This document shows, in pieces, positions 1,647 to 6,972 of a stretch of DNA of 6,972 nucleotides. The notes under the pieces were generated by a model. The model searched no databases. It saw nothing but the letters and a program-made list of their open reading frames with translations, and was not told the origin of the DNA. Numbering within the stretch: position 1 is the first letter of the stretch; the number at the start of each line of letters is the position of its first letter. The DNA is taken from the IMG/VR virus record IMGVR_UViG_2700989366_000013; one strand, given 5' to 3'. The translations under genes and the position numbers were made by a program. Source of the DNA: a virus (Duplodnaviria; Heunggongvirae; Uroviricota; Caudoviricetes).

Positions 1647-2017
1647 TGCGCCATGAGTTTATTTTACCTTATCCGCCGACGGTGAATACTTACTGGCGAC
1701 GTCGTGGCAGCACATATTTTGTATCAAAAGTTGGTGAGCGTTATCGCCGTGATGTGACGCTAATTGTTCGCCAGCAGCGGCTGAAATTAAACCTGTCCGG
1801 AAGGCTGGCGATAAAGATTATTGCAGAGCCACCGGATAAGCGCCGTCGTGACCTGGACAATATCCTGAAAGCACCACTGGATGCGCTGACGCATGCCGGA
1901 CTACTCATAGACGACGAGCAGTTTGATGAAATCAATATTGTGCGCGGTCAGCTCGTTCCTGGTGGGCGACTGGGCGTGAAGATTTATGAAATCACAGGTG
2001 ATAACGATGGCGCGTGA
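1646..2017 (+). CDS. rusA: RusA-family Holliday junction resolvase (crossover junction endodeoxyribonuclease)
   Basis: 123-aa ORF with the RusA family signature ([12 protein letters not shown]..., [27 protein letters not shown]) and the typical size and position for a lambdoid nin-region rusA. Confidence 0.85.
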
Positions 2018-2393
2018 TATTCAGCAGGTTATGGAACGGTGGGGGGCTTGGGCTGCAAACACTCATGAAGATGTATCCTGGGCGTCGATCGCTGCTGGTT
2101 TTAAAGGGTTAATTCCGTCGAAAGTGAAATCACGCCCTCAGTGTTCTGATGATGATGCAATGATAATTTGTGGCTGTATGGCCCGGTTGAACAAGAAAAA
2201 TCAGGATTTGCACGATTTGCTGGTGGATTATTACGTAGGTGGAATGACTTTTATGAGTCTGGCACGGAAACATGGGTGTTCGGATACCTGTATTGGCAAG
2301 CGCCTGCAGAAAGCGGAAGGGGTTATTGATGGCATGTTGATGATGCTTGATATCCGGCTGGAGATGGACAGATACGTAGAACGAATTATGTAG
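2007..2393 (+). CDS. late-gene antitermination protein Q (QuuD / Q21-like type)
   Basis: [38 protein letters not shown]...[18 protein letters not shown]...[23 protein letters not shown]... resembles, from memory, the Q-type antiterminators of DLP12/Stx-type lambdoid phages. Start chosen at ATG 2007 because AGGTG (1996-2000) lies 6 nt upstream; an in-frame ATG at 1986 is an alternative. It overlaps the rusA 3' end and is immediately followed by a promoter-like element. Confidence 0.6.
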
Positions 2394-2397
2394 GTGC

Positions 2398-2427
2398 TTG
2401 ACCAGACACATTGTCCGGGGCTATATT
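2398..2427 (+). promoter_or_regulatory. candidate late promoter (pR'-like) immediately downstream of Q
   Basis: TTGACC (2398-2403), 18-nt spacer, TATATT (2422-2427), beginning 5 nt after the Q stop codon. This is the expected position of pR' and the qut site in lambdoid phages. Confidence 0.35.
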
Positions 2428-2480
2428 CCTCACGCGCCAGCAAAATCTGGCGTCGGGATTGGAACCCCGGATAGAGACCG

Positions 2481-2503
2481 CGACAGACACACGCCGCGAG
2501 CGT
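2481..2503 (+). terminator. intrinsic terminator (tR'-like) after a short leader
   Basis: Hairpin ACACGC (2481-2486) / GCGTGT (2492-2497) with 5-nt loop, followed by TTTTTATT. It lies about 60 nt downstream of the candidate -10. Confidence 0.45.
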
Positions 2504-2702
2504 GTTTTTTATTGTCGTATGCACGCGCACATCTGAATTATGGTGGGGCGCATGGGGGAGCTGAAAAGCTCGCCGGTCGGTTTCCCGGTAGTTCCAACCC
2601 TGTGCGTCTCACCACCCGATGATTGGAACCTGACGGTGTTGACAGTTTCAGGTTTGCAGTTTACATTTCCCCGCGGTGCTCAAAACACCTCGAAAGCGGT
2701 AT

Positions 2703-2730
2703 CCACACCCGATAGCCATGTGGTTTTTTT
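2703..2730 (+). terminator. weak second terminator-like hairpin plus T-run
   Basis: CCACA (2703-2707) / TGTGG (2719-2723) with 11-nt loop, then TTTTTTT (2724-2730). Short stem, so low confidence. It sits inside the N-terminal extension of the 2676 ORF call, which argues against that start. Confidence 0.25.
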
Positions 2731-2873
2731 GTGTCCAGAATTCTTGGTTTATGACCGGGTGTGCGGCTAATACAATACCAGCAATGGAAATACGCCCGCC
2801 GACTTTCGACGGTTTTGAGCGCCCGGTCACCCTCTCAAAAGGGGTAAATCAAAATATTCGAAAGGACATGTCT

Positions 2874-3437
2874 ATGAATCGCACGTCTATTGAAAAACTC
2901 CCGTCACTTACGCATAACCATCTTCCTGTCATGACAACAGAGCTGCTGGCTGATTTGTACGGAACAGAGCGCCAGCGTTTGACAAACAATTTCAATCGAA
3001 ACAAAGAACGGTTTATAGAAGGTAAACATTTTTTCCTGATAGAAGGTGATGCGTTACGAGAGTTGAAGAACGAAAACTCTTTAAGAGTTTCTGTGAAAAT
3101 TGCCCGTAACGTTCGCTCCCTCATCCTCTGGACAGAACGTGGCGCAGCCCGTCACGCCAAAATGCTCGAAACCGATCAGGCGTGGGAAGTGTTCGAAAAA
3201 CTGGAAGACTGTTATTTCAACCAGAAACAGCCACCAGCGGCACAAAACACATCTATCGAAAATGATGGATGCGCATTACTGAGCCACTTCGATAAACACG
3301 GTCAGGTTGAGTTCACGGAAAAGGTACCCGCCGATGCGATGGTATGTACTCTGGAACGGTTTAAATTTTATCTGGAGCAACACGGGTGGATCGTTGCCCG
3401 TAAAGAGCAACTGGTGGAGCGGTTGATGCGGTTTTAA
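2874..3437 (+). CDS. ORF6N-domain protein (phage antirepressor-like / DNA-binding), about 187 aa
   Basis: The segment LPVMTTELLADLYGTERQRLTNNFNRNKERFIEGKHFFLIEGDALRELK matches the recalled ORF6N-domain pattern (L..LYG.....L...RN.ERF....F.L). Start set at ATG 2874 with AAAGGA (2861-2866) 7 nt upstream; ATG 2868 is in frame two codons earlier. The longer 2676 start would run through a hairpin and T-run and lacks an RBS. Confidence 0.6.
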   Translation: MNRTSIEKLPSLTHNHLPVMTTELLADLYGTERQRLTNNFNRNKERFIEGKHFFLIEGDALRELKNENSLRVSVKIARNVRSLILWTERGAARHAKMLETDQAWEVFEKLEDCYFNQKQPPAAQNTSIENDGCALLSHFDKHGQVEFTEKVPADAMVCTLERFKFYLEQHGWIVARKEQLVERLMRF

Positions 3438-3512: not shown

Positions 3513-3539
3513 AAACCCGCCGATGAGCGGGTTTTTTTA
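3513..3539 (+). terminator. intrinsic terminator downstream of the ORF6N-domain gene
   Basis: AAACCCGC (3513-3520) / GCGGGTTT (3527-3534) with 6-nt loop CGATGA, running into a 7-T tract (3532-3538). Confidence 0.55.
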
Positions 3540-3588
3540 TACCTGAAAAACGGCACAGGACGTTAAACGTGCTGGTGGTCAGATGAGT

Positions 3589-3617
3589 TTGCAGATGTGA
3601 TGACATATGGTTATTAT
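3589..3617 (+). promoter_or_regulatory. possible promoter for the tRNA cluster
   Basis: TTGCAG (3589-3594), 17-nt spacer, TATTAT (3612-3617), about 10 nt before the first tRNA. The -35 match is weak. Confidence 0.2.
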
Positions 3618-3626
3618 TCTGCCTCC

Positions 3627-3703
3627 GGCCCTTTAGCTCAGTTGGTCAGAGCGAGCGACTCATAATCGCCAGGTCGCTGGTTCAAGTCCAGCAAGGGCCA
3701 CCA
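3627..3703 (+). tRNA. tRNA-Ile2 (anticodon CAU, lysidine type; ileX/ileZ-like); elongator tRNA-Met not formally excluded
   Basis: 77 nt including CCA. Hand-folded cloverleaf: acceptor GGCCCTT/AAGGGCC, D-stem GCTC/GAGC, anticodon loop CTCATAA, T-arm GCTGG-TTCAAGT-CCAGC. Sequence closely resembles E. coli ileX as recalled. Confidence 0.85.
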
Positions 3704-3704
3704 A

Positions 3705-3781
3705 CCACCACTAGCTCATCCGGATAGAGCATCAACCTTCTAAGTTGACGGTGCGAGGTTCGAGTCCTCGGTGGTGGGCCA
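3705..3781 (+). tRNA. tRNA-Arg (anticodon UCU, reads AGA)
   Basis: 77 nt including CCA. Acceptor CCACCAC/GTGGTGG, anticodon stem TCAAC/GTTGA with loop CTTCTAA, T-arm CGAGG-TTCGAGT-CCTCG. Begins 1 nt after the previous tRNA. Confidence 0.85.
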
Positions 3782-3783
3782 GC

Positions 3784-3859
<76 letters not shown>

Positions 3860-3862
3860 TAT

Positions 3863-3937
<75 letters not shown>

Positions 3938-4195
3938 GCGAGATTTGAGACGAAGGTTGTTATTTGCACTGACACAATATTGTGTGGGAATGTCTGACTC
4001 CTTACCATCTCCTGTTCTGTGATGTTGTTTTGTTGCAGTTCCAGTGCTCTTTTTTCAGCACCAGAATGGTGCATTGTCGGTCAGGTTACGTAGTGAACCT
4101 CTGGCAGGGGACTGATGATTCATCATTCTGGTGTTGTAAATATCTCTTCGGACAACTTACAAAATATTCTAAGCAAACCCCGGGAACACACTCTT

Positions 4196-4219
4196 AACTG
4201 CCTTGGCTGGCGGTTTTTT
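4196..4219 (+). terminator. candidate intrinsic terminator
   Basis: AACTGCC (4196-4202) / GGCGGTT (4209-4215) with one G-U pair and 6-nt loop, followed by TTTTTT (4214-4219). It starts within the stop codon of the 3982-4197 ORF. Confidence 0.35.
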
Positions 4220-4550
4220 GTACAGCGCTCGGTATGTGTGAGCTGGAAATCAGATTTTGCATGGACTGGAATCATGCTGTTATTTAGGGGCGAAGAACTG
4301 GCTTTTTCTTCCGCCTTCTCACCAGTAACGATTAGAAAAATAATGAAATGCCCCCCTCCGGGGAGGAGGACCGAAGAAAAAAGGCCCCGCCAGCAAAAAC
4401 ATTGGGGATGAACAGCTTTCGCTACTCAGATTGCTGGCGGGTAAAGTTCCTCATGAATTAAGAATGCTACGCGATCTTTTTTAATGGAAATGAAAATTAT
4501 TGTCAATTAGTCGTGCGTGTTTTTTCATACAATATTGGTAAAGGTGATTC

Positions 4551-4587
4551 AGGCCATCAGAGTTTTGCTGATGGCCTTTTTTCTTTC
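4551..4587 (+). terminator. strong intrinsic terminator in an ORF-free region
   Basis: Perfect 10-bp stem AGGCCATCAG (4551-4560) / CTGATGGCCT (4568-4577) with 7-nt loop, followed by TTTTTTCTTT. There is no T-run on the opposite strand, so it is + strand specific. Confidence 0.55.
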
Positions 4588-4845
4588 CGATAGCACAGGT
4601 CTGTCGGGGGGAAAACGTTTTTTGTACATTGTGGATTTTTACATGCTGATATGATTTATTTTCAATTAAATCAATTAGATATGACCTTGCCTTTAATTTC
4701 ACTAATGAAAGTTTGGGGGTGAGGTAACGCTATAAGCGTAGAGAATTCGGTGTATGTCGTGACCGTGTCATTTACAGCATTTTTGATGCCAGAAAATGTA
4801 CATTAACAGCAGAAAGCACCAGTGAGGGGGGTGCCCCTATTAAGT

Positions 4846-4856: not shown

Positions 4857-6053
4857 TTATGACCCCTGCGGGGTATAAAAAGTCCCGTCGCGCATCATGG
4901 CGAACAGAACGTCGCAGCGTCGTCTCGCCAGGGCGATAAGCGCCTGATTGTGTCGTTTTCCCTGACTCATTTTGCGGGTGTAGTAAGCCCTGGAGAGCGG
5001 ATCCCTGAGCGCGGCGAAGGCCGACAGGAACAACGCCCGTTTGAGAGCTTTATTACCCCGTCGCGAGGGATGCTCACCGCGTATTGACGAGCCGGATCGC
5101 CGAGTTACCGGCGCAAGGCCAGCATAAGCAGCGAGATGTGCGGCAGAGGCGAAGGCGCGGCAGGCGACCTCGGTGAGGAGTCTGGCTGCGGTCCTGACAC
5201 CGACTCCGGGCATACTGGTCAGGACCGGGTAAAGAGGGTGAGCAAGAACTCGCTGTTCTACCTCAAGCGCCACCTCGTCTCTTTGCTTACGCAGCGTGAT
5301 GAGCTGGAGTGCCAGACGTGGCAGTACTACGGCAGCGGCATTCGTGCCGGGAACGACGACGGTTTGTTCGGCCAGTGCCTGAGCTATGTCTGCTGCAAGG
5401 CGTTTACCCAGACGAGGCGCAAGTTTGCAGAGCTGGGCTGCCAGCTTCTTCTCACCCAGCGAAGCGAGTTTTTCTGGTGAGGGATATCGCTGGAGAAGAT
5501 CGAGTACCGCCGGGTGCTCAAGTCTCGGACCGAGAACGCGCTCCAGTGCCGGATGTATCTGGGTCAGAAGGCCGCGGATACGGTTGCTGGCCTGCGTTGT
5601 CTGTGCGGCAAGATCATCATCGAAGCCGCAGAGCATGGAGAGTTCGGCGATTTGCTCGTCAGCCAGTTTCAGCGTGCGTAGCGCGTGAGGCAGGGTACGG
5701 GCAGCTTCGGCAATGATGGCAGCGTCACGAGCATCAGTTTTAGCTTCACCGGCGTGTAAGTCGGCTATGCGGCGCATGGCCAGTCCAGGGAGGTATCCGA
5801 CAAGGACTCCTTCTGAGCGGGCAACGGCGACAGGTAACGCACCGATGGTAGCTGGCTGATCAACAACCAGCAGTATCTGACCATGTTGTTTCAGGTCAGA
5901 TATTAGCGACCTGAGTTTGTTTTCGTCGTTGGGTAATGCTTTATCGAACAGGCGTTTACCTGAACGATTAATGGCAACAGCGTGATGCGTATCTTTACCG
6001 ACATCAACGCCGATAAAGACCTGGACGGATTCGTAATCGCTGGATTCGGTCAT
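4857..6053 (-). CDS. IS110-family transposase/recombinase (DEDD RuvC-like N-terminal domain plus Tnp C-terminal domain), 398 aa
   Basis: N-terminus VFIGVDVGKDTHHAVAI (DEDD catalytic aspartates). C-terminal block MPGVGVRTAARLLTEV...AAYAGLAPVTRRSGSSIRGEHPSRRGNKALKRALFLSAFAAL...QGKRHNQALIALARRRCDVLFAMMRDGTFY is characteristic of IS110/IS116/IS900-type transposases. RBS GGGAGA on the - strand lies just upstream of the ATG at 6053. Confidence 0.9.
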   Translation of the reverse strand: MTESSDYESVQVFIGVDVGKDTHHAVAINRSGKRLFDKALPNDENKLRSLISDLKQHGQILLVVDQPATIGALPVAVARSEGVLVGYLPGLAMRRIADLHAGEAKTDARDAAIIAEAARTLPHALRTLKLADEQIAELSMLCGFDDDLAAQTTQASNRIRGLLTQIHPALERVLGPRLEHPAVLDLLQRYPSPEKLASLGEKKLAAQLCKLAPRLGKRLAADIAQALAEQTVVVPGTNAAAVVLPRLALQLITLRKQRDEVALEVEQRVLAHPLYPVLTSMPGVGVRTAARLLTEVACRAFASAAHLAAYAGLAPVTRRSGSSIRGEHPSRRGNKALKRALFLSAFAALRDPLSRAYYTRKMSQGKRHNQALIALARRRCDVLFAMMRDGTFYTPQGS

Positions 6054-6567: not shown

Positions 6568-6972
6568 ATGTCCGTAATGTTACAAAGTTTAAATAACATT
6601 CGCACCCTCCGTGCGATGGCTCGCGAATTCTCCATTGACGTTCTTGAAGAAATGCTCGAAAAATTCAGGGTTGTCACTAAAGAAAGACGTGAAGAAGAAG
6701 AACAGCAGCAGCGTGAACTGGCTGAGCGTCAGGAAAAAATTAGCACCTGGCTGGAGCTGATGAAGGCTGACGGAATTAACCCGGAAGAGTTATTGGGTAA
6801 TAGCTCTGCTGCTGCACCACGCGCTGGTAAAAAACGCCAGCCGCGTCCGGCGAAATATAAATTCACCGATGTTAACGGTGAAACTAAAACCTGGACCGGT
6901 CAGGGCCGTACACCGAAGCCAATTGCTCAGGCGCTGGCAGAAGGTAAATCTCTCGACGATTTCCTGATCTAA
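6568..6972 (+). CDS. stpA: StpA, H-NS-family nucleoid-associated DNA-binding protein and RNA chaperone
   Basis: 134-aa [36 protein letters not shown]...[27 protein letters not shown] matches E. coli StpA as recalled, including the H-NS C-terminal DNA-binding motif TWTGQGRTP. Preceded by an AT-rich regulatory region of about 280 bp (6290-6567). Complete, with stop at 6970-6972. Confidence 0.9.

Follow-up and report, generated by a model that had tools for sequence, protein, structure and literature searches.

The window analysed here, a 6,972-nt stretch of prophage DNA (IMG/VR record IMGVR_UViG_2700989366_000013), carries at 2874..3437 on the plus strand an ORF6N-domain gene of the AnrP family that follows the late antiterminator gene Q and precedes a tRNA cluster. 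We propose, with a probability of about 0.6, that its 187-residue product is an AnrP-type, two-module regulator of the 'Bro network' that relieves repression and whose synthesis is gated by two tandem RNA switches. The proposal draws on homology, domain limits, the architecture of the locus, matches to RNA families, covariation of pairing sites (b1, b' and b2 below) and purifying selection. As a variant of the Gifsy-1 and P1 designs, the locus has a second switch, built on an RNA of the sRNA-Xcc1 class (sRNA, small RNA), stacked on the gene's own ribosome-binding site (RBS).

The open reading frame (ORF) is intact from ATG 2874 to TAA 3435-3437, with the Shine-Dalgarno sequence AAAGGA 7 nt 5' of the ATG. 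Longer frames opening at GTG 2676, ATG 2785 and ATG 2868 were rejected because these starts are not conserved and because, in the EC12 and O157 homologues, an in-frame TAG stands 12 nt 5' of the start. Pfam ORF6N (PF10543) matches residues 13-97 (2910-3164; model positions 5-86 of 86) with 74.4 bits (E = 8.8e-21; gathering cut-off 27.8 bits), and no other Pfam family matched the protein. A preliminary description of the locus, made from the letters of the window alone, had assigned the first 100 or so residues to ORF6N and called the protein antirepressor-like; the profile search bears out the first point, and the second agrees with both an end-to-end match to PHROG 2379, 'anti-repressor' (residues 2-187 on profile positions 3-187 of 187, E = 4.4e-85), and homology to AnrP. 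That protein, STM2616 of Gifsy-1, is likewise an ORF6N protein of 187 residues by Pfam, shares 49% identity over 184 aligned residues (E = 6e-58), and is encoded between Q (STM2617) and a tRNA gene. Ant proteins of the 933W/Phi24B type have residues 2-124 in common with the window protein (66% identity). In all, 4,661 homologues were found, nearly all of 185-195 residues and mostly from Enterobacteriaceae (E. coli, Shigella, Salmonella, Citrobacter and E. albertii); the closest cluster, of 106 member sequences, is from Shigella sonnei and is 99% identical. The gene is thus an ordinary, widespread prophage gene of antirepressor type, which adds one more member to a known family at a locus of known type.

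What sets the locus apart lies in the 235 nt or so upstream of the gene. (The RNA elements, promoters and terminators described here are all on the plus strand.) A promoter dedicated to the ORF6N cassette is predicted at 2639..2667 (-35 TTGACA, 17-nt spacer, -10 TACATT; 10/12 in the promoter scan). TTGAC and a -10-like hexamer are kept at this position in at least 12 divergent leaders with differing spacers, and in phage Nil2 a promoter is annotated 'by homology' at the equivalent place. A candidate LexA box at this promoter (CTGACGGTGTTGACAG, CTG-N10-CAG, 2631-2646, overlapping the -35) was rejected as probably due to chance, because EC12 and O157 have ATG-N10-CAG at this place and locus L121 lacks the site. 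The promoter is followed by a short leader (2674..2730) that looks like a terminated small RNA: a hairpin (CCACA 2703-2707 with TGTGG 2719-2723) runs into a T-run at 2724-2730, and the stem shows compensatory changes across loci (CCACA/TGTGG, CCGC/GCGG, CCAAC/GTTGG and CGCC/GGCG). Within the leader is the bipartite site b1, composed of GCTCAAAAC (2678-2686), ACC and TCGAAAG (2690-2696), which is complementary to positions 2803-2820 of the RNA downstream. This RNA, at 2753..2836, matches the sRNA-Xcc1 family (Rfam RF02221) over model positions 1-87 of 87 with 77.4 bits (gathering 53), and ACC(C) follows its outer stem on the 3' side. Its b' site consists of the loop of the second hairpin, CTTTCGA (2803-2809), and the adjoining TTTTGA (2813-2818). 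The same b' site is complementary to b2 at 2849..2866 (TCAAAA 2849-2854 and TCGAAAG 2858-2864), which overlaps the Shine-Dalgarno sequence GAAAGGA in the ribosome-binding region of the ORF6N gene, ATCAAAATATTCGAAAGGA. The match of b' to the leader copy b1 is the longer of the two. No icd-like ORF was found between the Xcc1-class RNA and the gene. From this arrangement the Xcc1-class RNA appears to mask the ribosome-binding site of the ORF6N gene.

The three sites change together among relatives. In EC12 and O157 the loop, leader site and RBS site read CTACTGA, TCAGTAG and TCAGTAG, and in phage Nil2 they read CTACTTG, CAAGTAG and CAAGTAG. For a quantitative test, the complementarity of each loop to the RBS region of its own locus (cognate) was compared with its complementarity to the targets of other loci (non-cognate) by permutation; fixed windows and permutations were adopted because loop calling from minimum free energy (MFE) folds was unreliable on the short hairpin. 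Across 12 unique loop alleles the cognate pairings averaged 7.0 nt and the non-cognate pairings 4.15 nt. When loci detected with Rfam in Photorhabdus, Serratia, Brenneria, Arsenophonus and Accumulibacter were added to give 21 alleles, the means were 7.1 nt and 5.2 nt. In neither set did any of 200,000 permutations reach the observed sum. Relative to the ATG, the b2 target lies between -22 and -7 in the 12 alleles for which its position was determined. On the leader side, 11 of the 17 listed leaders have exact copies of b1 that change along with the loop, and most of the remaining leaders have partial ones (L011 has none). The complementarity of b1, b' and b2 is therefore kept through different sequences, that is, the sites covary. 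The arrangement is also common: an sRNA-Xcc1-class RNA stands directly 5' of the ORF6N gene in 28 loci found by BLAST and in 9 of 20 further, distant loci searched with Rfam, and an RNA of either the C4 or the Xcc1 class lies directly 5' of the ORF6N start in at least 116 of 160 related loci.

Upstream of this cassette is a first RNA module that closely follows Gifsy-1. A pR'-like promoter, the equivalent of PisrK, is predicted directly after the Q stop codon (2398..2427; -35 TTGACC, 18-nt spacer, -10 TATATT; 10/12 in the scan). From the -10 onward the sequence is conserved with the Gifsy-1, EC12, VL40 and O157 loci. The spacer between -35 and -10 (17-18 nt) varies with the family of Q gene upstream, which may be of PF06530, DUF1133 or Q82 type (the window and loci L001, L002, L003 and L005); a spacer swapped along with the Q gene looks like a Q-binding element, as expected for a late promoter at which Q loads. 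Next comes an IsrK-class sRNA (2434..2510; Rfam RF01394, 77.5 bits, gathering 50) that ends in a tR'-like intrinsic terminator (hairpin 2489-2505 and T-run, to 2511) and is overlapped by a c4-a1b1 motif (2421-2473; Rfam RF03163, 50.1 bits, above gathering). The loop of the second IsrK hairpin, TTGGAAC (2459-2465), is the b1 site of this module. It is complementary to b', GTTCCAA (2591-2597), inside a C4-class antisense RNA at 2536..2619 (Rfam RF01695, 71 bits, gathering 45) that the alignment places at the STnc1160/orf45 region of Gifsy-1, and a second copy of the loop sequence, b2, follows at 2623..2629. The Gifsy-1 triplet reads TTGGCGT/ACGCCAA, so that it differs coordinately from that of the window, although the region 2398-2635 as a whole aligns with Gifsy-1 nearly base for base. 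A candidate a'/a2 pair in this module (CTGAAA 2561-2566 with TTTCAG 2646-2651) was dropped for want of covariation support. Two orf45-like AUGs, at 2540 and 2552, are spaced 12 nt apart as in orf45, where they lie at +107 and +119 (Hershko-Shalev et al. 2016, PMC4825925).

Upstream of the gene, the window looks as if an IsrK/C4 leader had been fused near 2638 to a cassette of the antB type, a junction that is also present in other loci such as L121. We suggest this origin because Nil2 carries the IsrK/C4 module before antA and the promoter and Xcc1 module before antB, in the ninR region. As a side observation, the orf45-like frame (2540-2770, 76 codons) extends across the second promoter and both the decoy and the terminator of the leader, ending in the 5' stem of the Xcc1-class RNA. 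In addition, some database proteins (P0131 and P0124) have an upstream start, so that the C4-class RNA region is translated as an in-frame extension of the antirepressor. The stretch of P0131 that covers the C4 region matches Pfam Phage_ASH (E = 1.5e-12), so this family may in part describe translated RNA genes.

How such modules work is best known from Gifsy-1. There PisrK, which follows antQ, makes the IsrK sRNA, and some transcripts pass the terminator into orf45-anrP and are translationally silent; IsrK supplied in trans turns on translation at orf45-anrP, so that AnrP output is set at the level of translation (PMC4825925). Expression of AnrP raises antQ-operon mRNA and induces Gifsy-1 (PMC4825925), and AnrP therefore acts upstream of Q. 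IsrK and STnc1160 are highly transcribed under all conditions in lysogens that lack lytic transcription (PMC7067206), and sRNA-Xcc1 is abundant, and neither ribosome-covered nor translated, in a lysogen of the enterohaemorrhagic E. coli (EHEC) strain EDL933 (PMC5331693). These published expression data fit an RNA expressed in the lysogen. The Ant protein of Phi24B has been proposed to promote efficient induction (PMC3064807), and an sRNA-Xcc1 preceding an ORF6N gene has been pointed out in APSE phages, without explanation (PMC7313666). Our literature search found no paper giving sRNA-Xcc1 a role in masking the RBS of an adjacent ORF6N gene.

On these grounds we picture a regulator in which an ORF6N (KilA-N-like) N module and a small orphan C module would be joined at an invariant block of 33 residues. 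The first switch on its synthesis would be a constitutive late promoter with the IsrK sRNA and its terminator and the C4-class RNA, as in Gifsy-1. The second would be the gene's own promoter, the terminated leader with its decoy b1, and the Xcc1-class RNA, whose b' would pair with the Shine-Dalgarno site b2. In the lysogen the Xcc1-class RNA would mask the ribosome-binding site, so that little protein would be made, as in the c4-ant systems of P1 and P7. Excess leader RNA, acting like IsrK in trans and having the longer match to Xcc1, could serve as a decoy that frees the site, and read-through transcription would also be expected to shift the balance toward translation. By analogy with these systems, we infer repression by Xcc1 and relief by the leader. 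Once made, the protein would relieve prophage repression as Gifsy-1 AnrP does, tipping the lambdoid prophage toward lytic transcription, including that of the Q operon. An antirepressor-like job of this kind is, judged from its relatives, the most likely one for the protein. Q-driven read-through from pR' would add transcripts without being required.

The preliminary description had placed the gene between the late promoter and terminator and the tRNAs, which is where it lies (promoter 2398-2427, terminator 2489-2511, tRNAs 3627-3937), and had concluded that it would be expressed only under Q antitermination, an unusual timing for such a protein, and might have a host-directed or defence-related function. 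This conclusion amounts to a late accessory gene, or 'moron', transcribed only when Q antiterminates at tR'. The region of lambdoid phages in question does carry morons such as stx, and a gene downstream of pR' and tR' would be co-transcribed with the late genes once Q acts. Nevertheless, the gene has its own conserved promoter (2639-2667) and leader, and the same promoter-leader-gene cassette is found in the ninR region of Nil2 and other Shiga toxin (Stx) phages, far from pR'. In Gifsy-1, anrP'-lacZ fusions that lack antQ are transcribed from PisrK through the terminator (PMC4825925), and both upstream RNAs are made there when lytic transcription is not. Synthesis of the window protein is thus probably not simply Q-dependent, and its expression is unlikely to rest on Q alone. 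The position is not unusual either. Enough sequence upstream was available for 148 related loci; in 60 of them a same-strand Q homologue has its end 255-503 nt before the gene, and these Q genes belong to three families. The spacings fall into two classes, about 280 nt (the Gifsy type) and about 484-503 nt (the double module, as in the window). A place right after Q is typical of the ORF6N/AnrP family, and the neighbourhood comparison called for in the preliminary description shows both this position and the RNA modules recurring in related loci.

A defence function fares no better. The only PADLOC matches are to models of the candidate system PDC-S05; they are weak (E = 1.4e-07 to 2e-03), cover residues 19-115 and reflect the ORF6N domain only. 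No PADLOC model matched the whole protein or its C-terminal domain, the latter has no defence-family match, and where function has been tested in a homologue, the protein promotes prophage induction from a point upstream of Q. We therefore regard a late moron with a host-directed or anti-phage function as improbable. Taken together, the preliminary interpretation was only partly right, and its mechanistic side is mostly not supported.

The protein itself is built from two modules. The N module (residues 1 to about 125) is common to many 'anti-repressor' PHROGs up to residue 125-131 or so. It contains a block, ILWTERGAARHAKMLETDQAWEVFEKLEDCYF (residues 83-115; 3120-3218), that is identical in 33 of 33 aligned homologues. 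At the nucleotide level the block differs from Gifsy-1 at 11 of 99 positions, all synonymous; because the nucleotide differences inside it are almost all of this kind, the constraint acts on the protein. The segment on its N-terminal side (residues 30-80 or so) and the C-terminal domain vary and assort independently of each other. The block seems to serve as a recombination joint as well. The N module is followed by a linker of very low AlphaFold confidence (about residues 112-130) and then by an orphan C-terminal domain (about residues 131-187; 3264-3434). The preliminary description had called the last 90 or so residues unfamiliar; that stands for the C-terminal domain, which matches no family or fold, but not for the block ILWTERGAARHAKMLETDQAWEVFEKLEDCYF that was quoted as part of them, since residues up to 97 fall inside the ORF6N match, the block is invariant and the N module is shared to about 125-131.

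The structure prediction suggested there was carried out. AlphaFold gives a small beta-hairpin/two-helix domain at about 131-187, with a confidence (pLDDT) of 70 for the full-length protein and 73 for the C-terminal domain alone, rising to 79-90 over its folded part. Foldseek returned no significant match for it in PDB or BFVD (best E = 0.24-1.3). Sequence searches were equally negative: apart from a chance match to MCM_C (E = 0.028), no Pfam family was hit at E <= 10 by three sequence types and a Rha-fused relative, and there was no match in NCBIfam or, with single-protein and profile searches, among PDB sequences. An exhaustive search of 1.84 billion representatives found only 11 relatives at E <= 1e-3, and a search with the Gifsy-type domain only 16 proteins, mostly fragments. 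The domain is nonetheless real and under purifying selection, the median ratio of nonsynonymous to synonymous substitution rates (dN/dS) for the C-terminal region being 0.15 over 149 pairs. It occurs in at least three divergent sequence types, type A in the window, type B in VL40 and O157 and type C in Gifsy-1, each of which keeps a beta-beta-alpha-GW(I/F)V-alpha pattern, and it also turns up behind Phage_pRha and AntA N-domains in fusion proteins, or alone in short ORFs. N type 1 is joined to C type A in the window and to type B in O157 Z869, while the Gifsy-type N module is joined to type A in P0029 and to type C in Gifsy-1. By these sequence comparisons the N variants and C types assort independently across the invariant block, and the C-terminal domain is shuffled among Bro-type N-domains. 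It may act as a partner-choosing or oligomerisation module.

Several observations weigh against an AnrP-like antirepressor under this kind of control. The assignment of antirepressor activity to this particular protein draws on homology to AnrP, and for AnrP itself only downstream effects were measured, binding to a repressor not having been shown (PMC4825925). The C-terminal domain shares only about 25-30% identity with its AnrP counterpart, so that the target or the activity could differ. The prophage is truncated and the window shows no immunity region, and the protein may therefore have no cognate target in cis. The translational coupling of orf45 and anrP in Gifsy-1 is broken in the window, where the orf45-like frame ends 103 nt before ATG 2874 with the second module in between and its stop is not adjacent to the gene start. 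Finally, the MFE fold of 2674-2880 pairs the leader with the 3' half of the Xcc1-class RNA, so that b1 and b' are paired in cis and the RBS is mostly open; on this sequence alone regulation could be positive or negative, and Xcc1 could act either in cis or in trans.

The protein might instead be a sequence-specific DNA-binding transcription factor that would act on phage or host promoters, dimerise through its C-terminal domain and not inactivate a repressor. ORF6N, KilA-N and Bro-N modules are reportedly classed as DNA-binding domains, both in Pfam and by Iyer, Koonin and Aravind in 2002. The best fold matches of the C-terminal domain are to dimeric modules such as the TonB C-terminal domain, and the missing demonstration of repressor binding by AnrP leaves room for such an activity. 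Those fold matches are not significant, however, the classical antirepressors (P22 Ant, P1 Ant and Phi24B Ant) are themselves Bro-network proteins, and the RNA control is of a type known for antirepressor genes (P1 c4). We consider a plain transcription factor unlikely, if less so than a moron, and retain the antirepressor as the preferred reading.

The state of the prophage raises the further question of whether the gene does anything at all. The stretch 3938-4611 is a 99.7% match to the VL40 prophage between its tRNA cluster and its holin gene, and phage homology ends at about 4611, just before the holin position. Next come an IS110-family transposase gene on the minus strand (4857-6053) and, from about 6275, renewed homology to the chromosome, covering the region upstream of stpA and stpA itself (6568-6972). 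No lysis or morphogenesis genes, and indeed no late genes, remain downstream of pR' in the window. The prophage is a truncated remnant with an insertion sequence (IS) element at the cut, and the ORF could be a functionless passenger that has merely not yet degraded. Against this stand the intact ORF, RNA modules, promoters and terminators, the identical locus in several IMG/VR contigs and the large Shigella sonnei cluster, and the purifying selection on the family. Moreover, trans-acting antirepressors of defective prophages are reported to act on other prophages (PMC3121763). A mere passenger therefore seems about as improbable as a late moron, and a working AnrP-type antirepressor remains our preference.

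Comparison with known systems shows where the locus is new. It shares with isrK-orf45-anrP of Gifsy-1 the order of Q, promoter, IsrK and terminator, C4-like STnc1160/orf45, 187-residue ORF6N protein and tRNA, and the sequences of the promoter and IsrK region are nearly identical. It differs in having the extra promoter, leader and Xcc1 module (2639-2866) between the orf45 region and the gene, in its C-terminal domain (type A rather than C), in the family of its Q gene and in an orf45-like frame that does not adjoin the gene; nor was an isrJ-like RNA detected 3' of the ORF6N gene, another difference from Gifsy-1.

With the immI region (c4-icd-ant) of P1 and P7 it shares a structured RNA that precedes the antirepressor gene in the same transcript and has exposed segments that pair with an RBS site, b2 (Citron & Schuster 1990, as summarised in PMC12197685 and PMC7313666). 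There, too, the target is duplicated upstream (b1), and P1/P7 heteroimmunity is based on covariation of the pairing sequences between alleles; in the window, the first module is a direct match to Rfam C4 and c4-a1b1. In contrast, the RNA of the second module belongs to another Rfam family (sRNA-Xcc1, in no clan), it targets the antirepressor's own Shine-Dalgarno sequence rather than an upstream icd ORF, and the antirepressor is an ORF6N protein. The c4 RNA is released by RNase P and represses through the icd ORF and Rho polarity; the likeness of the window to it is one of sequence.

The antB and Ant genes of Stx phages, including Phi24B and 933W, share the promoter-leader-Xcc1 cassette and the N-terminal 120-125 residues (66-77% identity). 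They differ in lying in the ninR region or near int rather than after Q, and in having other C-terminal domains, for example P22 Ant-like ones. The CI RNA of P4, with seqA and seqC, is also a processed antisense RNA with complementary sites up- and downstream, and the authors of the IsrK study named it as a structural analogue (PMC4825925), but it terminates transcription of replication genes and does not mask an antirepressor RBS. Identity with the small, dinI-linked Gifsy antirepressors (PMC3121763) was considered and rejected: these are different genes in a different position. The LexA-controlled Gifsy antirepressors (Lemire et al. 2011) adjoin dinI in the nin region and do not follow Q.

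For Xanthomonas and Xylella sRNA-Xcc1 (RF02221), the family whose covariance model the window RNA matches well over threshold, the literature consulted describes an integron- or island-encoded, trans-acting sRNA linked to virulence. The phage Xcc1-class RNA, by comparison, lies invariably 40-75 nt 5' of an ORF6N start codon and pairs with the RBS of that gene. The family thereby gains a concrete proposed job, the masking of the RBS of an adjacent ORF6N antirepressor through allele-specific pairing and with an upstream decoy, a device of the same kind as the Gifsy-1 IsrK/orf45 system and P1 c4. A wider reading, to which we give a little less than even odds, is that sRNA-Xcc1 RNAs may generally be the antisense part of an allele-specific switch (decoy b1, loop b', and b2 at the Shine-Dalgarno sequence of an ORF6N antirepressor) and not free-standing virulence sRNAs. 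They would then constitute a second, independently evolved class of P1-c4-like 'immunity RNA' across the Proteobacteria, stacked here behind IsrK/C4, and C types A, B and C would set the repressor attacked, giving a combinatorial network of cross-induction among Shigella and EHEC prophages.

The gene alone is one of thousands of AnrP/Ant-type genes, and its ordinary identity removes the idea of an odd late DNA-binding protein or a defence gene. The cassette also precedes Ant proteins in Shiga-toxin phages, and its workings therefore bear on the gating of toxin-phage induction and on cross-talk between co-resident prophages. The Xcc1-class switch on the RBS and the orphan C-terminal domain are the parts that merit follow-up.

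The rest of the window is in keeping with its origin, which ORF, Pfam and tRNA scans identify as the right-operon end of a lambdoid prophage. First comes a DnaB-like helicase gene (1-1392), followed by an ORF for an 85-residue helical protein (1389-1646), rusA (1646-2017) and, directly upstream of the first RNA module, Q (1986..2393, plus strand; Pfam Phage_antitermQ PF06530, E = 2.7e-52; phrog_79). The 85-residue product had no significant Pfam family and matched only the C-terminal ends of PHROGs to which no function is assigned (phrog_2565, E = 5e-31). Downstream of the ORF6N gene, the terminator scan found an intrinsic-terminator-like hairpin and T-run (3513..3541, plus strand; hairpin 3513-3534, 8-bp stem with 5 G-C pairs) that closes the cassette, and a promoter-like site was noted at 3588-3617, ahead of the tRNA cluster, which may therefore be transcribed from a promoter of its own. 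ARAGORN and Rfam place four tRNA genes at 3627..3937 on the plus strand, with anticodon CAT ('Met'), Arg-TCT, Thr-TGT and Gly-TCC. The equivalent cluster of the VL40 prophage is annotated Ile/Arg/Thr/Gly, and because its first position is tRNA-Ile, the tRNA at 3627-3703, which ARAGORN calls Met, is probably an Ile2-type tRNA with a lysidine modification, like that of Stx phages.

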